Origin: Octopus vulgaris
Lineage: Eukaryota
Assembly (NCBI GenBank): GCA_951406725.2
Contig: OX597821.1
Span: 30,814,001-30,878,000, forward strand
Direction of reading: 5' to 3'
Length of the DNA stretch: 64,000 nucleotides
The notes below the pieces were generated by a model that was not told where the DNA came from, made no database searches, and saw only the letters and a list, made by a program, of their open reading frames with translations. Position 1 is the first letter of the stretch, and every line of letters starts with the position of its first letter. Of this stretch, positions 2,140-64,000 are shown one piece after another. The position numbers and the translations under genes are program-made.

Positions 2140-2752
2140 ATTCCTCGTCTTTCACATTTCCTGGCTTTCTCTTCATTATCACCTTCCCTCCTCTTTCACT
2201 TCATTCTGTACCTTTTCTTCTTTTCTCGTTTCTCCCTAATTCTTCTATCCCTCTACCTCTAACTTTTCACTCGTCTCTCTCCAGGTGACCGGTTTTCGGC
2301 CAAGGTTGACCTTTCTTTCTTGGTTCGACTACCATCTGTGCAACATCTATATTCCTCTCCATGCCTGTCATCTCTTACGTCTCCGCACTAAGGCTTCACT
2401 TCCACAAACACCAGCTTACTTTGATTCGTCCTTAGTCGAACCACACCTGTTGTTAATTTACTGTTATTTGAATTTGTATTTATGTAACATATCTCCGTTT
2501 TTTTTTTCGTCCTTGTTTTCGTATACATTCGCTGCTTTCTTCCAAGGAATCTAGTGCTCTTAGCTTAGTTTTCTCTCGGGGCTGGCCAGATTGGAGCGAT
2601 CTCGAGTATAACTAACCGAAATTGAAAAGATAATCTGGAACTCGACTGAGGAAAGAAAACTCCGAATGACCCGCCCTTGCTTTTTCTCCTCCCTTTATTG
2701 TATCATCCATTTGTGTGGATGTTTTGCGATCTTGTCCCATTTTTCGTTTTCG
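2140..2752. mobile_element. Unclassified interspersed repeat (possibly retroelement terminal repeat)
   Basis: Pyrimidine-rich block followed by a GC-richer structured segment, bounded by (TA)n; resembles a recurrent octopus repeat from memory only. Confidence 0.35.
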
Positions 2753-3624
2753 ATATATATATATATATATATATTCACACACACACTATATGTAAATGTA
2801 TGTGTATAACCCAAATTTCTATGTATAAGTGCATAGATAAATAGCTAGCCAGATAGATATAAAACTGTGCATTTCTGAACTGCATATGTATGTGTATTTG
2901 GGTGTGTGTATGCGTGTATATGTGTGTGTGTATCATTTATAACTGTATGGAAATTATTATTTAAAAATATAACTTAAAAATATAGTGTCATGTTATGCAG
3001 ATGATGGCAAGACATTGTTACTTGAATAAAATTAATATCGAATTTCCTATCGCATATGTGGTTTCCAATGATTCTGTTAAAATACTATAAAATGTTTTGC
3101 CTCATTAAGTCGAAGAAATAAAAGTTACATTTCGTGATTAGAAGCAAATATATATTTTATGAGGTGGAAGGGAATAGATAAATCTAAAAAAAAAAAAATA
3201 ATATATATTTAGAAGCTGTTAGAATGACCATTGCTACAGAGAAAAATGAAGGATATAAACGTCAAAATAGATTTTACTAAGAACAGACATTTGAAAAAAA
3301 TATACTGAGAGACGTATATATTCCTACGAGATCATATCATAAATAACGACTGTGTATGTAAGTGTGTATATAGTATGCATATGTATATGGCATGTATGTA
3401 TGTCTGTATACACACGTATATATATATATATATACACATACATAAATTTCTATATGTTTATATCTATATTTATCTCTCTATATTAACGTTTATATACGTG
3501 TGTGTGTATACATATATGTGTAATCTATATGCATATACATGTATATATAAAAGTATGATATATATATATATATATATACACATGCATACATACATACCTA
3601 CATATATATATATATATATTTATA

Positions 3625-3674
<50 letters not shown>

Positions 3675-3734
3675 TATATATATATATATGCGTGTGTGTC
3701 TGTGTATCTCTGTGTATGTATTTTTTAATATTTT

Positions 3735-4245
3735 ATTTATTCCAGATTTTACATTTCGGTCATGCTTGAGTACCGCATTGAAAATGTTTAGAAGAACGAA
3801 TTGACCCCAGTTCTTATCTTTTAGTCTGGTACTTTTTCTATTGGTTGTTGTTTGCGTAACGGCTAGATAACGGTGAAAAAAAAACACACCAATACGTGCT
3901 GTCTTCCACTAGTGGAGGACGAACACATACACGAGAACACGCACATACACGAACCTGCTCACACTCACAAAGAGTCAAAAGATTTCTTCCACTTTGCCGT
4001 TTACCAAATTCATTCTCGAGGTATTAGTCATCCCGAGTTCCAGAGGTCGAATTTGCCTTTCATCCTTTCGGGGTCGATAAATTAAGTACCAGTTGCGCAC
4101 TGGGGTCGATGTAATCAACTTTATCCGTTTGTCTGTCTTTGTTTGTCCACTCTATGTTTAGTCCCTTGTGGGTAATAAAGAAATAGGTATCATGCGATGA
4201 TAGTGATCCCGGAACCTTTAGGGTGAAAAGCAAACTTCTAAGCAC
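3735..4245 (-). mobile_element. Degenerate SINE family C interrupted by a family A fragment
   Basis: Similar to 11781-12192; head remnant resumes at ~4200 after the nested insertion. Confidence 0.65.
4042..4188 (+). mobile_element. 5'-truncated SINE family A
   Basis: gaggtcga..tgcctttcatcctttcggggtcgataaattaagtaccag...aaagaaataggta. Confidence 0.85.
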
Positions 4246-4271
4246 TGCGAAAAAATTCGCTACTAATATAT

Positions 4272-4360
4272 ATACTCTTTACTCATTTACCCTTTTACTT
4301 CTTTCAGTCATTTGATTGCGTCTATGCTGGAGCACCGCCTTTAGTCGAGCAAATCGACTA
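4272..4360 (-). mobile_element. SINE family C 3' tail fragment
   Basis: ttttact repeats followed by ttcagtcatttga...atgctggagcaccgcctttagtcgag. Confidence 0.8.
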
Positions 4361-4371
4361 ATTTTTTGGGG

Positions 4372-4493
4372 GGAAGGGGGCCAGTTGATTAGATCGACGC
4401 CAGTATACAACTGGTAAATGATTTATCGATCCCCAAAGGACGAAAGGCAAAGTCGACCTCGGCAGAATTTGAAATCAGAATGTAAAGACAGAC
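4372..4493 (-). mobile_element. SINE family A fragment
   Basis: Reverse complement of the family A core (gaaaggcaaagtcgacctcggc). Confidence 0.8.
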
Positions 4494-4583
4494 TGTTACA
4501 GTATACAAAGATTGTTCATGGCACCAGTACACTGTTTATAGATGCTTAAATTTTGTTTCTTTTCGGGGAAATTTTCACGGGTC

Positions 4584-4708
4584 TCTTTCGGGGTCGATTA
4601 AATAAGTACCAGTTACGCACTGGGGTCGATATAATCGACTTAATCCGTTTGTCTGTCCTTGTTTCTCCCCTCTGTGTTTAGCCCCTTGTGGATAGTAAAG
4701 AAATAGGT
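4584..4708 (+). mobile_element. SINE family A 3' half
   Basis: ctttcggggtcgattaaataagtaccag...aaagaaataggta. Confidence 0.85.
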
Positions 4709-5917
4709 AGTAGAAGTAGATCGAACACAGGAATGTACTACCGATTAAACAGCTGAGATTGGGAATTAGCATTACAGCGGGGTGCACCATATCTGTTTTT
4801 GCTATTTGTGGCTGTCATAAACACAGAACTTGTGGTGGGAATGAAACAGTTGAGATGTCCAATAAAATGACTGAAACATAGGAAATCCAGTTTGAAGGAC
4901 ATTAATAGATGACATGTCGGTTATGACTCCATGAATTGAAGGAGCACAGCGGACAGTGAGCTCACTTTAAAAAAATGACCACATGTTCTTCAGCATTCAG
5001 GGTTCTTAGATACCGAAAATCCAATAGAAAATTGTGTGCTGCATTAGGAAAAATTACGATCATATCCTGAAGGATACGGAAAATATCGGAGAAAATTTGA
5101 CTACTAGATACTTAGAAGGTTCAAAATTGGTGCTTCGGGTATGGTAAAATACTCAGATCCCAGTGGATAGTTTTGGTTAGCGGCTTTTCCATGACACCCG
5201 TAAAGAAACTGGAGGTGTTGCGTAGCATATTCGTACGAATGTGGCAGTGTTTCCCCCAAATTTCTGTTCAGTCAGTCTGCATTGGAATCCTCTAAGCTCC
5301 GCCTATCAATTTTTATCAAGATGGTGTTCTGACTACGATACGTAAAAAAATTCGTACTGACACAAAATTTACTTCTAGATGGAAAATAAAAAAAAACTGA
5401 GCGATATTTTATGCTATTCTCAACGAAAAAGGGAGAACTATGTTTTAAAAATTAGAATACCTGTACTATTAACAAGTATAGTGAGGAGGTAGGGAGACCT
5501 ATTCGTGATTAATATGCTCTGCTGATAAGATTTTAATGACACACTGACATCTATACATGTTACGGTGCCAAATAATATCGATCTTATTTCCTTGTGTGAT
5601 AACAATTTTTTGTGTAATTCATTCATAATTTCTATAAATTATCTACTCTATTTTATAGATGAAAACAATTGCCGGTTGTTTGACTCTCCCCTAGGAGCAA
5701 ATTGCAATATAATGTGAATATTTTTTGCAAATCATTGAATATATAGCCAGAGATATATGTGATCAATTATGATTTTTACTTCTTACAAAGAAACTGTAGC
5801 ATGCAAGATAGTTCAAAGTATAAAGCCCAGGGGAGTCTATATCAAATTATTCAAGCTGAAGTACAATCTTTAAATTTCATAAAGCTCTCGAAACAACAAA
5901 AAAGTTTTATTCGTGAA

Positions 5918-34475: not shown

Positions 34476-34957
34476 AAATACATATATGTATACACACACA
34501 AAAAGAAAAGAAAAAGAAAAATGGAGATTTAGGATTGGCACATTTTAATTTATTAACATATCAATATATTATCATGATTATAAAATATAATATAATATTA
34601 AATAAATATAAATATTTAAGCCTACAATTGTTTCAATTCAGACTCAATAATAAATTTATAAATTTATTATTGCGTCTGATGTTGAAACACTTATAGGAAT
34701 ATAATATTCATACTTATATTATATTATATTATATTATAACAATGTTATATTGCGTTAATAAATTAAAATATGTGAATTATTAATCTCCACTTTTCATTTT
34801 TGCATTTTGAATATATAACCATTTGAATTGTGGAAATGTTTTTCTGTGCTATATTGCGCATAAAACCACCAAACCTGTGAAAAACTGGATATTTCAATCC
34901 CTATAGTGGAGACTGTTTTATTTGCATTGGATTTCAATTATATATGTATATAGAGGG

Positions 34958-35008
<51 letters not shown>

Positions 35009-35234
35009 AGAAATATATCTATCTATATATGTAGTAGTTGAATGAATTATCTTATTATGGATAATTCGGTTAACCGATACCTGGGTAGCAAATTCACGTC
35101 AGAAAAACACGGTTGAAGCTACATGCCTAGGGCAAAGACCACGTGCTATCGTGTGGAAATTTGTGTGTTTGTTTGAATACAAATAAATGAAAGAATGGAG
35201 TTGAACGACGAATTTTAAAAATTCCTTTATTTTA

Positions 35235-35318
35235 TTTTCGACATATGTTTTGAAGGCTGCTTATTCCTAATTTCGAAGGAATAAGGGGTGCATTATGCCG
35301 CCTTCTCATCAGGAAAAA
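35235..35318 (-). ncRNA. Type I hammerhead ribozyme motif with G12A core change
   Basis: Minus strand: TTTTC-CTGATGA-GAAGGC...GCCTTC-AAAA-CATATGTC-GAAAA; 5-bp stem I, but GAAA>AAAA at 35251. Confidence 0.65.
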
Positions 35319-35390
35319 GTAAGGAACTTATGTCAGCATCAAGATGCACAAAAACTTTTAGATGCCTGCCCACACGGAGCCCATAGCGAT

Positions 35391-35475
35391 AATTCTCTGA
35401 TGAGAAGGCGGCATAATGCACCCCTTATTCCTTCGAAATTAGGAATATGCAGCCTTCGAAACATATGTCGAAAAT
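35391..35475 (+). ncRNA. Type I hammerhead ribozyme motif (intact catalytic core)
   Basis: CTGATGA 35397-35403; stem II GAAGGCgGCATA/TATGCaGCCTTC; GAAA 35458-35461; palindromic mini-stem III ACATATGT; GTC triplet, predicted cut after 35469; stem I weak. Confidence 0.8.
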
Positions 35476-35557
35476 AAAATAAAAGAATTTTGTTAATTCG
35501 TCGATCAACTCCATTCTTTCATTTATTTGTATTAAAAAAAAAATCTATATATGTATG

Positions 35558-35612
<55 letters not shown>

Positions 35613-35734
35613 ATATATATTTATTTAATTATTTATTCATTTATATTCTTGTGGATTTTTTCAGAACATTTTGATATTTTGGTGAAGAGAGAGAAGTTCT
35701 TACTGCGTCCACTCGCCGGTGTTTCATCAGTAAC

Positions 35735-36110
35735 AGATGATTACGGACTCTATGTGAAGATGCTGGTGAAACACTGGTTAGAGAAGGTTACATTTGGAAG
35801 GACATCTGCGTGACAGTATTATTCGTTTCCCTGCCATACCACCGGAAGAAATGGACGTCGGAGAATTTCTACGATTCCATTAGCTCCAACTACTTGTATA
35901 GTAATTATCCCGATTGTAATGCTATGGATTACTGAAACGGCGCGCTTGACACAAACACGATCGCCTTCTTGCAACACTGAGAATGAGCTGGTGACCAAGA
36001 TTATGGCCATGTTCGAAGGTCTTGCCAGGGACCCATGTGCCAACATGTAGATTCTTATCCATGACATGACGAAAACCATGCGTTAGTTCGAGTAAACACT
36101 TACCTGCCAT
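35735..36110 (+). pseudogene. Decayed Tc1/mariner (maT/DD37D-like) transposase fragment
   Basis: YVKMLVKHWLEKVTFGR..*QYYSFPCHT (WQQDSAPCHT-like), SENFYD, YPDCNAMDY (SPDxNPxDY-like), SCNTENELVTKI..FEGLARD. Confidence 0.8.
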
Positions 36111-39147: not shown

Positions 39148-39280
<133 letters not shown>

Positions 39281-39412
39281 CTAATACTCTAATATTAATA
39301 CTCATGATGATGATGATCATGATCAAGATCCTTTTAATATTGGCACAAGTCCTGAAACTTTGGTGAAGATGGCTAGTTGATGATATCGACCCCAGGGCGT
39401 AACTGGCACTTA

Positions 39413-39413
39413 C

Positions 39414-39466
<53 letters not shown>

Positions 39467-39486
39467 TAATAATAATAATGATAATT
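39413..39486. repeat. (AAT)n microsatellite
   Basis: Direct observation; immediately precedes the RLE LINE. Confidence 0.95.
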
Positions 39487-39489
39487 ATT

Positions 39490-42195
39490 TGCAACCTTAA
39501 AAAGGTTGATCGATGGATATTGAACCAAGAAACGAAAAATGTCAATGAAATTCTGAAATACATCGAAACAAACAACATCACAGAAACAAATAATTTGATC
39601 AAGGTTGCAAGTATTTTTGTAGCAGAAACTCTTGGTGTCGATGTCAAGAAAAAGCAACACAATGGGAGTGACAAAAGAAAATATCCATGGTGGAAAAGAA
39701 GAATCCAGGCAGGGTTAGACATGCTTGAGAAGGAAATCTCTGTGTTAGACCGAAAAGAGAAAGGGCAGATATAAAAACGAACAAAAATACAGGGCGCTGA
39801 AAAGGAAGTATAATTTTGAAAGAAAGGGTCTGAAAGTAGTAGTGGAGGAATTGAACCAGCGCCTCGTTGCAAAGAAAGCAAAGATGGTAATATATGATTG
39901 AAGAATGAAGATTTACAACCAGAATAGGTTATTCAGAATAGATCAGAAGGAGCTTCTATAAAGAAAAAAAAGTGTGTGCAGATGAAAAGTTGATATCAGA
40001 TAACATTGAAAGCAAAAGTTTTTGCAGTAACAACTGGAGTAAAGACAAGGAGCACAAGAAGGACGCAAAATGGTTGCAACAACTGAAACAAACAGTAATC
40101 TATCCATAACAGGCAGAACTAACCATTTCAGTTAGGGAAGTGAACGAATACGGTAGACAATTACATGCCGATATCCTGTTTGCCACTTAAGTGGACGTCA
40201 TTGACTGGAATACTCGCAGAGTCAATATACGAACACCTGGAATAAAATGGAGTCCTGCCACATAAGCAAAAGTGTGGCAAGCGTAAGAGTAGAGGTACCA
40301 AGGATCAACTCCTGATAGACACAACTGTACTCAGAGATTGCAAGAGGAGGAAAAGTACCTTAATCATGGCATGGATTGACTATCGTAAGGTGTACGATAG
40401 TCGATCCATGACATTCTTGGATTATGGAGTGTATGAACATGTTTGGGATTGCATCGAATGCTGAGCAATTGCTTGGAAAAAGTATGACGAATTGGAAGCC
40501 GGACCTGACATCATATCGATGATGTTTAGGGACAGTAGAAATTAGGAAGGGCATATTCCAAGGGTACTGCCTGTCCCCACTGATATTTGTACTGTGCTTG
40601 ATAACACTAACATTGATTCAGAGGAAAGCAAAAGCTGGGTATATCTTCAAGAACCAGCAACAAAAAGTCAAGCATTTGTTATTAATGGATGGCCTCAAAT
40701 TTTATGGTAAATGAAGCCCAAGTCAGTTCCCTCGTTGACACGGTGTATACCTTCAGTGCTGATGTCAGAATGGAGTTCGGACTTACAAAGTGTGGTGCGT
40801 TAGTATTCAAGAGAGGTAAAATCAAATGTATGGAAGGACTAACGATACCGTCGGTGGAGGTTATGAAGCATATAGAAGAGACTGGCTATAGGTACTTGGA
40901 GGTTTTGGAAATGGATAAATTGATGGAGAAAGAAATGACAGAAAAATTTAAGGTGGAGTATTTGCGCAGACTGAGACTGATCCTTGAGTGGAAATTAAAC
41001 GGACGGAATAAGATCGGAACTATCAACACCGCGGTGGTTTCACTCCTTAGATATGGAACAGGGGTAATCGCATGGTGAGTAGACAAACTAAACAGCTTAG
41101 TCAGAAAGACAAGGCAGTTGCTAACTAGGTATGGGTCACTCCACCCAAAAAATGACACAGGCAGATTGTATGTACCAAGAAAAAGAGAGGGAAGAGGACT
41201 TATTGGATGCGAACACAGCAATAGCGCAGAAGAATGGTATGTAAAAAATGCCACAGAAACGCTATTACTAAACGTAAGAAAGTCAGGCTTGCGTAGGATG
41301 AAATATTGCAACGATAAAGTACAATACAAGAAACTGAAAACGAATGAAACTGAAAATAGGTGGGTAAAGAAACGAATGCATGGACAATTTCATAGGGATG
41401 TTGAAGATAAGACAGACAAAGAAAAAAGATTTCCGTGGATGACTAAAAGTGATTTAAAACCAGAAACAGGGGCTCTGATCTGCGCTGCCCAAGAGCAAGC
41501 ACTAAGAACAAACTACATAAAATACAGAATAGACAACACATCAGAAAGTGATAATTGAAGAATCTGTGGACAACAGTGTAACCGTATGGCATATTACCAG
41601 CCAATGTACACCAATAGCCAAGAAGGAATATAAGAGACGTCACGACAATATAGCCAGGCTTGTCCATTGGACACTTTGCAACAAGTATGGACTTGGCAGA
41701 ACAAAAATTGGTACGACCACAAACCTGAAGGCATTGTCAAAAATAGAAATACAAAGATACTATGGGATTTTATGATTTAGTGCGACCATGAGATTGAGAA
41801 CAGGAAGCCGGACATAGCCTTAATTGAGGAAGAAAATAAACTATACTGGATCATTGACATAGAATGCCCAGCTGACAAGGTATGAGATAAGGAAGAAAGG
41901 AAATTGAGAGATATGATAGGTTAGCTTGGGAAGTTAAGCAGGTGTGGTCGATGAAAAAGGTAGTAGTAGTACCAATAACTGTTGGAGTCCTGGGAACAGT
42001 GAGCAAAAATCTCCAGAAGTACCTGGAACAAATAGGGGCTGAAACAAAAGTGGAGCACTTGCAGAAAAGAGCACTGCTAGAACCGCTCGAATACTCCTTA
42101 AGGTGCTTGAAACATAAGAGGTGTTTCCTTAGTTCACTGGTAGTGGACAGCTGACACTGTAGTACATCTCCAGTGTTAGAAGCTGTGCAAAGGCA
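39490..42195 (+). mobile_element. Decayed R4/Dong-type non-LTR retrotransposon (RT + CCHC + restriction-like endonuclease)
   Basis: [96 protein letters not shown]; many stops; (AAT/AAC)n tail. Confidence 0.9.
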
Positions 42196-42249
42196 ATAAA
42201 TAACAACAAGAACAACTATAATAATAATAAAAATATTAATAATAATAAC

Positions 42250-43530
42250 TGAACCAAAATCTGTTTATGGATGACCTGAAAATGTTTGGGAAATCTGAAA
42301 AACAGATAGATTCCTTAACCATAAATTCCAGGAGTGGGGAAGAAACATCGGTATAGAATTCAGGATATCAAATGCTGAGTACCTAATATGAAAAGTGGGA
42401 AGAAAGCATCCTGCAGAGGATTGCGGTTATCATCAGGAGAGACCGTGGGTGAACCCGACGATAGTGGGTATAGATATTTAGGAGTTTTGGAGCTGGATGC
42501 CATTTTACAAAGAGAAATGAAAGTTAAGGTTAGTGAGGCGTATAAAAACAAGGTGAAGTGGGTGCTGAAATCAAAACTGAATTCCAACAATTTGATTATG
42601 GCAATGAATATCTGGGCAGTTGCGGTGGTCATATATGGTGCGTCCATCCTCAAATGGATTAAGGAAAATCAACACCGGATAGAAGGACATGAAAGTTGAT
42701 GGCGCTTCGTGGAGCGCTACACCCAAAAGCAAACGTAAACAGACTGTATAAGAAAAGAAAGGCTGGACTAATTAGTATAGACCTTTGTATAAGGAATGAA
42801 AGGAAGTTTGCCGAGTATTTGATAAATAGTGATGAAGACCTGCTACAATATGCCGCGAAAGATATTGGTGTATATGCAGATGAAATGATGGGCAAGGCAG
42901 AGTTTAACCAATGGGCTGAGGAGGAGAGAAAAGAAGACATTTTTGAAATGAGATTGTATGGAGAGTTAGAAAGTAATACACAGTCCAATAAGGATAATAT
43001 AGCTTCGTGGGCATGGCTTGAGCGAGTTGATTTCAAGCGTATCACCTAAAGCCTAATCATTGCTGCACGAGACCAGGATCTCGCTACCAATTCAGTGAAG
43101 TATAACAACTATAACACTTCTGACACCGAAAAATGCAGACTCTGTGGAAAGCGTGTGGAAAATGTGACTCACTTGTTAAGTGGATGTGACAGCCTTGCTC
43201 AAATGCTTCACCACAATAAAGTGTGTGTGTACCCTCATTTGCTCTTAGGCCGTAAATAGCAATATGAATCAACAGGGAACTGGTATTAGCATTACCAAGT
43301 AAGGTTACGCAGTCGGATGGAAAAGTAACGATACTCTGGGACTAACATTGCAGACCGCCCGCCGGATATTGTCATTTTGCGTAAGAAAGACAAATACCGT
43401 CAGATCATTGATGTAGCCTTACCAAATGACATGAATGTTGTGAGTAAAGAGGTTAAAAAAAATCACCAAGTACTCCCAAATAAAAATGGAAATGGCAAGA
43501 GAGTAATGTAAAAGTGATACCAGTGATGAT
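42250..43530 (+). mobile_element. Second R4/Dong-type fragment (RT C-terminal half to RLE)
   Basis: LFMDDLKMFGKSE, YRYLGVLE, ALHPKANVNRLY, AARDQDLATN, CRLCGKRVENVTHLLSGC, PDIV, IIDVALP. Confidence 0.88.
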
Positions 43531-43539
43531 CGAAACGTT

Positions 43540-44650
43540 GGGTTCAATCCCATTACGCTCTCTCCACTTCTTTTCTGCTTGGCACTGACACCTTTATCTG
43601 ACATGCTAAACAGTACTTGATGCGAATAAACTGTTACGACAAAACAATCAGCCACCTCTTTTATATGGATGACCTAAAACTGTACGCTACAAATAACAAG
43701 CAGCTGGAAACATTACTGCAGACAGTACATGGATTTCCCAAAGAAATAAATATGAAATTTGGCTTCGACAAATGTGACAAAGCAACCTTGAAAAGAGGAA
43801 AACTAGTTAAGAGTAGCAACATCACACTAGATAAAGCAAATGAAATAAGAGAACTAGACCAAAGCCACACATACAGATATTTAGGAATCAATGAACTAGA
43901 TACGATACAACACACACAAATGAAAATGAAAATAAAAAATAATACTATAGACGAGTTAGATTAATACTGAAAACAGAGCTCAATGCGAAAAACAAAATAA
44001 TAGGCATCAACACTCTAGCCCTCTCAGTTATGAAGTTACAGCTACAATATCCTCAACTGGACACTAAATGAACTAATCTAAATAGGCAGGAAAACAAGAA
44101 AAATAACGATAGGATTTAGGATGTACCATCCAAAATCTGACATAGAAAGGTTATATATACAACGTATAGAATGTGGTAGAGGCCTTATACAGCTAGAAAA
44201 CTATTACAAAATAAACACCATTGGTCTTTAAAAATACCTACTTCAGAAGCAAGAAATACTAATACAAATAGCCACATAACAAAACAAAAAAATGGTCTCA
44301 GTATTTAAGGAAGCTGAAAAATAAAAAAAGAAATCATACTACCTACCAACTATGAAGCAGAAGAAGAAACAACAAAAGCTGTAAAACAAATGAAATCCAA
44401 ACAAAAACTAGAACAGCAACGGACCATGATAAAACGATGGCAAGAAAAGCCCCTCCATCGCAAATACTGGGCTAAACTAAATGCAAAAGAAATAGACAAA
44501 GAAAAATCCCAGCAATGGCTGAGAAGCTCAGGGCACGAAGGAGACATTGAAGGATTTTTATTTGCAGCACAAGACCAAAGCCTCCCCACCAGAAATTCTC
44601 AAAAACTTATAATGAAAAGAAGATAACAAGTAACTGCAAAACATGTGGAG
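43540..44650 (+). mobile_element. Third R4/Dong-type fragment
   Basis: ISHLFYMDDLKLYA, YRYLGINE, HPKSDIERLY..GRGL, FAAQDQSLPTRN, CKTCG. Confidence 0.88.
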
Positions 44651-45600: not shown

Positions 45601-45639
45601 TACATACGTACATTCATACACATACTTTAAATAAAAATC

Positions 45640-46092
45640 GAAAAGGAAAACGTTTGGCACCACTTGAAAAAAATCCCTTTTAATGAAGAAAGGCTGAATA
45701 TGCTCGACCTTTATTCTCTAGAAAAACGACGACGCTGTGGTGATCTCATTCTTGCTCACAACATCATTAGCGAAAAATGTAACCTCTCGAAAGAGCTGTT
45801 CTTCACTCCTGCTCCAGAGCGTCGGCTGCGGGGTTACTCCGAAAAGCTCTCTCTGCGACGATTTCATCTCAATCGAAGGAGAGCGGCTTTCTCCGTCCAG
45901 GTTGCGGATCCGTGGAATAAGCTGCCGGACGAGATAGTGAAGATGCCGACGACTGATCGGTTCAAAGTCTCTCTAGACCAGAAATGGCCTGAACTCTTTG
46001 CATGAACACCCTCCCTGTACATAACTCCATGTCCCCCTACATGGCCTTGATTTTTGCTTTTTGAGCCCAAAAATTAACTTAACTTAACTTTA
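45640..46092 (+). mobile_element. 5'-truncated CR1/L2-like LINE 3' end
   Basis: ERLNMLDLYSLEKRRRCGDLI...RLRG...FSVQVADPWNKLP..V...FKVSLD; (AACTT)n tail. Confidence 0.88.
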
Positions 46093-56399: not shown

Positions 56400-56835
56400 A
56401 CGTCGTCGTCGTCGGCATCCGTCCATCTCGAGAGACGATGGTGTAGATCGGAAAAGGTGGTGGGTTTATCTGCACGTCCTGGTGTGGCTGTGCAGACAAT
56501 TCATCGAGTGGCAATCTCTACCACATCTGGTGCAAGTGAAAGGGGATGAGAGATGTGGTTGCTGCTGCTGCTCCTTTCGCCTGGTTCTCTTTAGTTTGGC
56601 AGTAGTGGTCCTCAGGTTCTCTGCTGTCGCGGCACCCTGCTTGACACTGTGTCGCCAGGCGCCTCTGTTGGCAGCGGCGGATTCCCATGTTAGGGTGTTG
56701 ATCTGGCATAGCTTTAGGTCCTTCTTGCAGATATCCTTGAAGCGCATTTTGGGGCGTCCCATTGGTCTGGAGCCTTCCACTAGCTGTCCGTACAGTAGGC
56801 CCTTTGAAATCCGTCCTGCATCCATTCGGCTGATC
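56400..56835 (-). mobile_element. 5'-truncated RTE-clade LINE 3' end
   Basis: RMDAGRISKGLLYGQL..GSRPMGRPKMRFKD..K.DLK...WE..A.NR..WR; C-terminal CTRCGRDCHS...HSH zinc motif; (GAC)n tail. Confidence 0.92.
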
Positions 56836-58527
56836 AAATGATAGTAGTAGCTGATCAAATGATATTTTTCTTTAATGCAACTGAGATGCCGCTCATGGTT
56901 AAACCTAAGTTGTTTTTTTCCTTGCCTGCCACATACTATAGTAAATGGTAGTGAAAATATGCTGTTTAATATCGAAATAGTCCTTAGAATACAACGTTCA
57001 TTAAAAACATGTAAGAAAATCACATATATCAGTTTTCACAAATTTAGCCCGAATTACATCTGCATCATGTATGGATTACAGATATCCGGAAGTGATAATA
57101 TAGGAAAGAAATGTATTCCGCCAGATGGTTAAAAATAGCTAGTTTACTTGATGACAAAGTATTCAGTGGTTCTTCTTCCGTGTCATGGTATTCGGAAAAT
57201 ATCGATCGTCTAGTCTATCTCCGCCCTTTTAATATCATCAATTTCAACGTTATCTGAAAAGTGGTTTCCGAAGTATATTTAGGATTCAATTGGAAAATTT
57301 TACTATTGACATGTGCCAATGAAAGAAAAATTACTTGCCAAATGTTACTGCCATTCTAGACGTTGTAAGCAGATGTTTTGTGACAAAGTTCCTTGCATTT
57401 TGCTAATGTAATTTTAATTCGAGAACAAAAGATTATGAAATTTACTTATGTATGCATTACGTACGGAGGGCAATGATTTTCAGGTAGTGGAAATTTGTAG
57501 TTACAGAAGAACATTCTTTTACCCAAGGACATATCGTTTGATGGGTCTTGAACACCCCACCCCCGCACGGCTCCTGAAATATTAAACTCGACACAATATG
57601 ATAGTAAATATAAAAGCTCTGAGTTACATACGTTCTTATGATGTCCTTACCATTGTAGTTGTGCATTCGCCACTAAAGAAACGTCAGGTGGTTAGGAATA
57701 GCATGTGGTCTATTGGAAACTAAACTGATATAGATGTTCTAGTGTACATTGAAAATAACAGGATAAACCGGATGCCCTGTCCCAACGATGGTGCATAAGA
57801 AAGGTCATAAGATATGTAAGGAAAAGCAGAAGGTCTATTATGATACACATATGAAATTCATGTTATTCGAAGGATAAAAACGAGAGTTAGAAACGAAAAG
57901 AGCAACGATGCATCCTTAGTGGTACTGTTACAACAGCACCAATATTTGCAAAACCATTTACCTGTCATTGGATGGTGTAATATCAATTCTTGTTCTTAGC
58001 CCCCAACATTTATGAGTAAAAATCTGATACGCATGATGGCAAGGACAACTAACGCGATTGAAATTCCATTTGAATGCTGAACATGTAAGTAAGCGTTTAT
58101 GCAAAGATACATTTTTGTGTTGGACAATGTCTAACCCTGTGTTTATAAATCCAGATATGAATATATAAAATTGCTATAAACATATGCTAACATCTCTATA
58201 TCCACGTACAAACAAAAATCACACACACACACACACACACACGCATGTATATACATAAATGTGTATGTATGTTAACATATGCGCGTGTGTAAAATTAGTA
58301 ATAGTAAGCAACGCTTCCCTTGTACAGTAGCAGGAATGAGTTGGTAAGGCTTGACGATGATATGGCAAATGAAAGAATTCGAATTTATTCTACTTTGGAG
58401 TGCGATGATCAGGTAAATGTCTCATTACAGAGCGGAATTAATCTATAAGTTTACCTTTTAAATATATGTACGTAATATTCATATAAAATTTGTAAATTAT
58501 TTGTACTGGCAAATCATCTTGAAGAAA

Positions 58528-61945: not shown

Positions 61946-64000
61946 CTTAGATAAACTTAGATATGTTTCGACCAAAGATTGGTCCAAGGCCATGTCTAAC
62001 TTAATAGCACCACCTGATAGGATTATTTGAATCCTGTTTAAGTCAAGTTTTGTTTATGGTCCATTCAAGTAGTGAGTTTTTGTTGGGTGAGTTGTATCCA
62101 ATTATGGGTGGCTTATCTGGTATTCCTTGAAGGAATCTATCCAGACTCCGTTTAAAGTTGATGGGATCCTTTTCCTCTTTGATCTCTTTCGGGACAATGT
62201 TAAATAGGGCAGGGCCTGTTGAGGAAAAGAAATTATGTTGCAGTGTACATGTATGCTGTGATCTTGAATTGGGCAGGGGACGTATGGCCCGTGGTCCCAG
62301 TCTTGGATGAACCTTGAAGCTAATGTTCAGGTCGTTTGGGCAAAGTTGGCGGTATATTCTCCACATCGTACAAATGATGTACCGCTCACAGCGACGCTGG
62401 AGAGAGTAGAGTTTCAAGGCTTTAAGGCGATCCCAATAATCGAGAGCAGCCATGCCTTCAATTCGTTTAGTGAGTGCCCTCTGGGGTGATTCAATCCTCG
62501 AGATGTTTTGTCTTGTATGGGGAGACCACAGTGGGCAGCAGTATTCGAGGTGTGGCCGTACAAAGGAGGAGAAAAGTGGTATGATGACACCTTGTTCTCT
62601 GGACCGGAAAGTTCTTAAGATCCAGGAACTCATCCTACGAGCTATATCGACCTTCTTGTTGATGTGTGCACTCCAACTGAGATCGTCATCAACAATTACA
62701 CCCAGGTCTCTGATATTGTTAGAGGCTGTGAGCGGTTCCCCTGAAGGAAGAGAGTATGGCTGTTTTAGTGAGGAATTTCTTCCAAAATGCATCAGCTCAA
62801 ATTTTCCCTCGTTCAGTTGCATTTTGTTTCTGTCTGCCCATTGACTCACAGCATATAGATCAGACTGGAGTTGAGTTCGGTCTGCTTCTTCATTGACGAT
62901 TTGCTGGAGCTTAGTGTCATCAGCAAATATTTTCACTTTTTTGCAGTAATGTACGACACTGGAAGGGTCGTTTATGTAAATTATGAAGAGTAGCGGACTC
63001 AAGACAGTCCCCTGGGGGACACCGCTGGTGACTATTCGCCAGGAAATACTTAATCCGGTGTAGAACATTTCCACGAATTCCAACATTTGCCAATTTTGAG
63101 AGTAGGATATTATGGTCTACCCTGTCGAACGCTTTACTGAAGTCAAGATATATGACATCAGAGTTCGAACCTGTTCCCAAGGCTTTGAGTACATCTTCAA
63201 TGTGGTGTAAGAGCTGTGTTAGACAGTCCCTGCCACAGCGAAAGCCATGCTGATTTGCATTTAGGAGTTTGTGGGTCTCCAGGAAGTCAGCTATCCTTGA
63301 TCTTAACACTCACCTCCCACATCATTAAAGTGTTTGAAAGAGTGTTAACACCTGCGTCTAACGAATTTCTACAGAGGTTGGTCAGAGGGACTGCAAGTTG
63401 GTGTCTACATTCCTTCAGGAGACTAGCGGGAATCTATCAGGGCCTACAGCAGAGTAGTATTTGACCTCATTTATTGCTGCTATGATGTCAGTGGCAGTGA
63501 AGGTTATGTCTGAGATTTTATGTTGGGAGTCAACTTCGTTCGCTTCTCTTACGTCAATATCAGTGGGAACACTAAAGACAGAGCAGTATTGTTTCTGCAG
63601 TATTTCTGCCATTTCTTTAGCATCATGTTGGGGAATGCCGTTATCATCAATCAATGGCCCAATGGGTGAGACAGTGGTTCTATGCTTATTTGCATAAGAA
63701 TAGAAACTTTTGGGTTCTGTTTGATGTTTTTGATTACCCACTGTTCCTCCACAGCTCTTTGATTTTCAATGGAGGTTTTCATGTCGGTCTGCAGATGAAG
63801 TTTTTCCAGCTCTAGCCTTTTCATTGTTGTTGAATGTGGATGTTGTATGTGGGAATATTTTAATTGGTTGATTTTTTTGTTGAGTCTTTTGATGCGCCTG
63901 ATGAGTGTTTTTTTTCTTTTTAGGGAGCCGGTTTCTGTTTGTGTTAGTAGATTTCGTGGGAGCGTGTTTAGAGCATGTATAGGTGACAATGTTTTCAAAG
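61943..64000 (-). mobile_element. CR1/L2-like LINE (RT, frameshifted), running off the window end
   Basis: QHGFRCGRDCLTQLL, YLDFSKAFDRVDH, GVPQGTVLSPLLFIIYIND, IFADDTKL, VRPHLEYCCPLWSP, LYSLQRR; (TATCTAAGTT)2 tail. Confidence 0.93.

Follow-up and report, generated by a model that had tools for sequence, protein, structure and literature searches.

What process placed two hammerhead ribozyme motifs back to back, on opposite strands of a long inverted repeat, in the genome of Octopus vulgaris? An earlier note on the stretch of DNA analysed here (64 kb, hereafter the window) had proposed a candidate non-autonomous mini-element carrying its own ribozymes. We consider another origin highly probable, namely that the locus consists of head-to-head, 5'-truncated terminal-repeat (pLTR) copies of a hammerhead-bearing, protein-coding Penelope-like element (PLE) lodged in a TA-rich microsatellite, likely through a single event, with reverse transcription primed from each of the two cut strands of the target, and that it is likely dead now. 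Priming, transcription start and cleavage are reconstructed in what follows from the scars that they would have left in genomic DNA.

The two arms of the inverted repeat (35168-35312 and 35397-35541) are each 145 nt long, lie 84 nt apart and are 94% complementary, with nine differences, two of them within a terminal A run. Alignment with other copies identifies the 84-nt "spacer" as the upstream portion of the minus arm, which also extends about 140 nt past the repeat, to about 35033 (Table 1). The earlier note was right about a long inverted repeat with outward-pointing hammerheads, but the unit is larger than the 137-bp arms it described, comprising the 145-nt repeat and an arm that runs from 35393 to 35033. 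This main arm, the B arm (coordinates taken from L001 1154-1514), reads from -80 relative to hammerhead residue C3, the predicted transcription start, through the hammerhead and a first 3' end site, site A, to its own 3' end at a second, site B. The 3' end of the inverted A arm adjoins an A run that reaches 35543. The AATAAA reported after GUC is present, but it sits inside the 3' strand of stem I and was rejected as the end of the element. The right flank is a (TA)n/(TG)n microsatellite, and no target-site duplication could be called at the window insertion. The 64-kb window holds no further copy of the arm and no parent or related ORF elsewhere, and the window copy itself is devoid of an ORF.

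Table 1. Features of the head-to-head insertion, in window positions
Feature	Position	Strand	Evidence
Left target flank: (GATA)n and TA-rich microsatellite	34957..35032		
Main arm (B arm): 5'-truncated pLTR of Penelope-like element	35033..35393	-	Full-length copy L031, 94% match
One-sided tail, 3' end site A to site B (about 155 nt family-wide)	35033..35175	-	Comparison with family copies
Minus-copy hammerhead core, made up of CUGAUGA, a long stem II containing an inner hairpin, AAAA and stem III ACAUAUGU	35240..35312	-	
Head-to-head junction: three bases, TCT, assigned to neither arm	35394..35396		
Inverted arm (A arm): exact start at hammerhead C3, end at or just past site A	35397..35533	+	
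Plus-copy hammerhead core, with its catalytic residues intact but no 5' strand of stem I	35397..35469	+	
Right target flank: (TA)n/(TG)n microsatellite	35544..35620		

By inspection, both arms display the core layout that had been claimed, with CUGAUGA, a long stem II, GAAA and a palindromic stem III. In the plus copy CUGAUGA occupies 35397-35403, GAAA starts at 35458, ACAUAUGU lies at 35461-35468 and C17 at 35469; stem II is closed by the pairs GAAGGC/GCCUUC, and the stem II region from CUGAUGA to GAAA measures 47 nt in each arm. The minus copy, with C17 at 35240, keeps an intact stem I (5 bp, an internal loop and 9 bp) and has G12A at 35251, within a CpG, so that the 5-bp stem I and the CpG-type change described earlier both stand. 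The matching description of the plus copy, an intact core with a weak stem I, holds for the core, but the weakness reflects the truncation junction and not a design. Both window ribozymes are likely dead, since the junction has cost the plus copy the 5' strand of its stem I, while the minus copy carries G12A. Since G12 is retained in 48/48 arms picked up with patterns that lie downstream of the ribozyme, we take the G12A of the window to be private decay.

Constraining the plus copy to the hammerhead fold places it 12.7 kcal/mol above its free fold, and in intact family copies the constrained folds still lie 2-5.5 kcal/mol above the free ones; isolated window copies have folding z-scores of -1.9 to -2.2 against shuffles. 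An Rfam scan gave nine weak matches at E<=10, the hammerhead family not among them, presumably because of the long stem II. Stem III is predicted to self-pair as an 8-bp duplex (-7.0 kcal/mol). A palindromic stem III is expected of dimer-type PLE ribozymes (PMC4209133), and it is through this helix that the ribozyme of the source element is predicted to act as a dimer. Because the window copies lie on opposite strands, no single transcript would hold both in sense and no dimer could form in cis. The predicted fold of a read-through RNA of the locus is a -224 kcal/mol hairpin that would bury either ribozyme.

A search with the arm gave 1765 candidates in the 2.8-Gb genome, 40 of which were scored. 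The exact-core pattern matched the genome 477 times (at least 477 copies of the element), and there were 1269 matches to a 25-mer close to site A and 832 to a 28-mer of the tail, each against 0 for the reversed control; with 477 core matches against none, the hammerhead motif is not a product of chance. It occupies the same position in the pLTR in all lineages where it was found, by descriptor or by alignment, and related lineages keep the core while varying at N7 (U/A), at N17 (C/A) and in the stem III palindrome (ACAUAUGU, ACAUGUGU or ACACGUGU). Across 13 aligned related copies the named hammerhead structure pairs in 88.5% of 452 cells, and 8/36 pairs show two-sided changes, six of these within the 12-bp stem II; the covariation score was reached by 0/500 shuffles and by none of the slid controls, which pair in at most 50%, although kinship of the sequences inflates such tests. 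Among the same 13 copies no two-sided changes occur in proximal stem I or in stem III; the lineage furthest removed has a disrupted distal stem I, and stem I was absent from the RNAalifold prediction. Judged by this conservation, the ribozyme is real at the family level, with the covariation backing concentrated in stem II. The earlier note had made its reading depend on a conserved core and stem covariation among genomic copies; the core is retained and stem II covaries across lineages. In the downstream-pattern sample the core is intact in 30/35 motif-spanning arms. The core varies less (5/419) than the remaining sites (367/7460), but subfamily polymorphism confounds this comparison, and it was set aside as a sign of selection on individual copies.

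The assignment of the motif to the PLE-type type I hammerheads with palindromic stem III is sound. The motif shares with those described by Cervera and de la Pena (2014, PMC4209133) the pLTR location, the short palindromic stem III, the long helix II and the G10.1-C11.1 pair, and differs from them in having no extra base between 9 and 10.1, a much longer, two-tier stem II and an extended, bulged stem I. A different hammerhead repeat (CTGACGA/CTGATGA ... CTCAAA stem I) was seen in L046 (minus strand, 7398 and 6833), L051 (minus strand, 2235) and L020 (1-1070); in L046 it has a 565-bp tandem period and is retrozyme-like.

The longer copies reveal the element to which the arms belong. In L031 and L036-L038, ORFs for a reverse transcriptase (RT) and a GIY-YIG endonuclease (EN) are followed by the same 3' end as that of the window arm, which contradicts the proposal of a non-autonomous mini-element; L031 has an RT frame, a GIY-YIG-type frame and an inverted copy of the ribozyme on its 5' side. 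The genome search suggested earlier, for copies and for RT/GIY-YIG ORFs, was thus productive on both counts, copies being abundant and the longer ones containing both ORFs. In the RT search 124 of 18067 candidates were scored, and 20 of those 124 were retrieved. Frames of the window family measure 741 aa (L037) and 833 aa (L036), and related lineages possess intact ORFs of 891-934 aa with about 58-72% identity to L036, as well as 3.6-kb tandems in L050. The proteins bear the motifs YRDD (RT) and IYQC..FYIG (endonuclease); Pfam gave RVT_1 at E=0.0018, below the cut-off, and no GIY-YIG match for the endonuclease of the window family. With a PLE-type RT and a GIY-YIG endonuclease in a single ORF, the parent copies are EN+ PLEs. 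Partial tandems giving pLTRs are found in L050, L052 and L048; in these the ATG comes about 55 nt after site B.

We have filed the element as a Hydra-like variant and not as a standard member of the Hydra clade, on protein sequence comparisons that include the published supplement alignment, compared by eye. That clade is defined by an RWK-like motif (RW(L)), DKT, no internal CCHH, CxxC/CxH, a CxCX5C linker and (TA)n insertion (PMC8557442). The element shares with Hydra-clade PLEs (Craig et al. 2021, PMC8557442) a single ORF with RT followed by a C-terminal GIY-YIG; RW(L) and SDKT, found here as (I/M)RWL in 8/13 frames and SDKT in 11/13, the frames without them being N-truncated or damaged; the CxxC...E...N...CxH of the endonuclease, here CxxCxSE and RCxH around conserved E and N at the C-terminus; the hammerhead in the 3' repeat; and inverted 5'-truncated copies, noted there for Penelope-13_HM. 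The endonuclease has no internal CCHH and one Cys between its GIY- and YIG-like motifs, and the (TA)n target is likewise common to both, mapped 3' ends running into TA-type repeats. The CxCX5C linker zinc finger of the Hydra clade, in contrast, is absent, with 0-1 Cys across the linker in 11/11 measurable frames and an Asn/Ser-rich tract of 145-199 aa in its place; at least three linker Cys are present in 116/116 EN-containing homologs among the 120 matches listed, as against 0/4 of this family's set. Asn-rich linker inserts are known in Adineta Penelope (PMC3846280). The family also departs from the Hydra clade as described in PMC8557442 in its ORF of about 900 aa and unit of about 3.6 kb (Hydra usually <3 kb), in its CUGAUGA-GAAA gap of 47 nt with a 12-bp stem and inner hairpin (3-10 nt loops in the Hydra ribozymes listed) and in its tail of about 155 nt (30-40 bp in the Hydra clade). 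Naiad and Nematis were dropped on clade definitions (C-terminal EN, DKT, no internal CCHH), and identity with Hydra-1_Obim of Octopus bimaculoides was rejected, that element having a different, short ribozyme and keeping its linker cysteines (by eye; PMC8557442).

Some of the retrieved loci hold other arrangements. L050 (G000:C1:119513500-119523400) belongs to a related lineage and contains a tandem of three almost identical units, each of 3624 bp, with open frames of 867-899 aa, and the many equal-scoring genome matches of this lineage suggest a young, possibly active family. L036 includes a unit-length copy (2741-5572) that runs from just past site A round to site A again and so represents the tandem unit in circularly permuted form. 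In L035 (7531-9499), a second, canonical Hydra-type family with the CSCRNKELC linker kept forms an inverted pair near a copy of the window element.

The layout of the window recurs at many loci. We mapped 130 of them (30 best arm matches, an unbroken series of 40 exact-core loci and 60 located with two downstream patterns), a non-random sample chosen by similarity or exact patterns and located mostly on contigs C1-C2, which after de-duplication represented 108 events, of which 58 were back-to-back pairs and 50 were single arms. No arm passed the filter in L107, L086 entered as two singles, the reference falling short of its junction, and L073/L074, an apparent segmental duplicate, was counted twice. 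In 57/58 pairs one arm has its 3' end at site A (about +133 from C3) and its partner at site B (about +290); one pair was A+A and none was B+B. Both pair ends adjoin TA-type repeats, and the same two 3' ends occur in full-length copies of related lineages (L042, L053, L049, L055). Junctions between arms show microhomology in 35 pairs, inserts in 19 and a blunt join in three. Core and proximal stem I are present in both arms of 22/57 pairs, and this recurrence, with the ordinary changes seen in the window copy, G12A included, makes it extremely unlikely that the pair is a regulatory device retained by the host, be it a dsRNA/ADAR substrate or a switchable ribozyme, as the predicted read-through hairpin of -224 kcal/mol might suggest.

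The reach of the two arms bears on whether one was copied from the other. Inversion through fold-back self-priming, by nascent cDNA or on an antisense template, has been proposed for Adineta Penelope from palindromic junctions (PMC3846280), and it would suit the window, where the A arm is nested in the B arm, as well as the 11/57 pairs with equal 5' ends. However, the A arm extends further 5' (>10 nt) in 30/57 pairs and the B arm in 16, and in 11/57 the arms do not overlap; in the pairs with a longer A arm or no shared sequence neither arm can template the other, so neither is always a copy of its partner, and the B arm tail is missing from the A arm. Fold-back is contradicted as a general route and very unlikely to have produced the locus, though it may explain a minority of pairs. 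In the 27 pairs with at least 80 nt of overlap, the arms agree in 399/420 polymorphic cells (95%, as against 74% when shuffled; 0/2000 shuffles reach this value), and such shared alleles fit the same RNA molecule, the same source locus and arm-to-arm gene conversion alike.

The 5' ends of the arms concentrate upstream of the ribozyme. They fall at -84..-64 in 54/166 arms, and exactly at -80 in 16, a count partly favoured by sampling for intact cores; 18/74 do so in the downstream-pattern sample. Within 5 nt of the cleavage site lie 4/166 arm 5' ends, and of the downstream-pattern arms 49/74 cross that site and 3/74 stop there; on the low counts of 4/166 and 3/74, a template ending at the ribozyme cut site was rejected. 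Position -80 is predicted from its sequence context to be the transcription start. Upstream of it, full copies have the TGACGTCA palindrome and then TATAA, 28 nt ahead of a TCATT at which the start falls between TC and ATT; we take these to be CRE, TATA and Inr, respectively. The TATA-to-start spacing is 15-21 nt in related L042, L053 and L054, and this variability weakens the promoter reading. The window copy begins at the predicted start and so would lack a promoter, which makes it a likely dead end. Three of four presumed-RNA contig sets aligned to a long family copy, with patchy cover and no usable ends.

Short copies that begin at -84..-64 form the most frequent class, and one reading of this is a non-autonomous ribozyme mini-element, retrozyme- or SINE-like and about 370 nt long from -80, that spreads via the PLE enzyme; solo pLTRs that keep the promoter could furnish such short RNAs in trans, and retrozymes derive from pLTRs (10.64898/2026.07.22.740005). 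We find this unlikely, given that copies from -80 have no upstream promoter motifs for self-renewal, that longer copies continue seamlessly into the 3' UTR and ORF, that the short arms comprise several subfamily haplotypes, and that head-to-tail arrays of the short unit are rare (L006/L016 are one locus, with microsatellite between the units). With metazoan non-LTR retrozymes (PMC7229834; 10.64898/2026.07.22.740005) the window sequence shares the type I hammerhead, the palindromic stem III and pLTR kinship; it differs in being inverted and non-tandem, with no head-to-tail monomer array, and in being the end of a coding element, continuous with the RT-EN ORF in longer copies.

The A+B rule, together with a 5' pile-up at the predicted start and not at the cut site, speaks for priming at both ends of the target, with uncut RNA as template, in preference to fold-back copying. 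We propose that the RT-GIY-YIG protein would nick (TA)n on both strands, and that one DNA end would prime at site A of the RNA while the second would use site B, which lies about 155 nt closer to the 3' end. Each cDNA would head toward the RNA 5' end across an uncut or re-ligated ribozyme, halting there or earlier, and the two far ends would be joined, mostly through microhomology or a few added bases. In the window, the B arm would have run off the RNA start and the A arm halted at C3, the template being either a single RNA used for both arms or a pair of RNAs of the same source. In L099, L102, L111, L127, L144, L153 and L155, several B arms end at +116..+136, close to site A, and look as if blocked by a complex primed at A.

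Poseidon_Ac of Anolis (Frangieh et al. 2024, PMC11167929) encodes a PLE protein, predicted to be a dimer, that cuts and extends both strands, and two RT start sites on its RNA define the tail, ribozyme cleavage not being needed. It has in common with our proposal the two RT starts, the cutting and extension of both strands and the uncleaved template, and with the window family an AT-rich target. It belongs to another clade, its start sites adjoin each other within the ORF whereas those described here precede the ATG with about 155 nt between them, and strict one-site-per-arm pairing is not reported in the available parts of that paper. A fuller model, which we put forward tentatively and with some doubt, is that the finger-less Hydra-like PLE still targets (TA)n, that an asymmetric enzyme pair assigns strands to sites A and B, 155 nt apart, copying one uncut capped RNA twice to its start, and that the hammerhead, whose stem II is long, two-tiered and covarying, would be a folding or dimer module and not what defines the template end.

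The locus itself is ordinary transposon debris and the family a variant of a known PLE clade. Inverted 5'-truncated PLE copies with one-sided tails (PMC8557442), opposite-strand hammerhead pairs 100-700 bp apart (PMC4209133) and octopus Hydra elements are already published. The window family and the loss of the Hydra linker finger were not found in the literature searched (mainly open papers, Repbase and Dfam being outside its scope), nor, in the same mainly open papers, were the long two-tier stem II, the 155-nt tail and the quantified A+B rule; the term "twin priming" was not found in the Penelope/PLE papers searched. The family bears on how PLEs make head-to-head insertions and on what the PLE ribozyme does, its 57/58 A+B pairs arguing against fold-back as a general route. 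The loss of the linker zinc finger with (TA)n targeting kept tests the published idea that the finger aims insertion, and the intact young tandems of L050 are a possible basis for an in vitro system.

Elsewhere in the window, fragments at 39249-44626, 45631-46005, 56466-57035 and 62043-63765 resemble, by eye, ORFs of non-LTR retrotransposons. Two short imperfect hairpins flank the insertion (34618-34700 and 35708-35785) and gave sub-threshold matches to a miRNA model, the second of them including CTGATGA on the minus strand.
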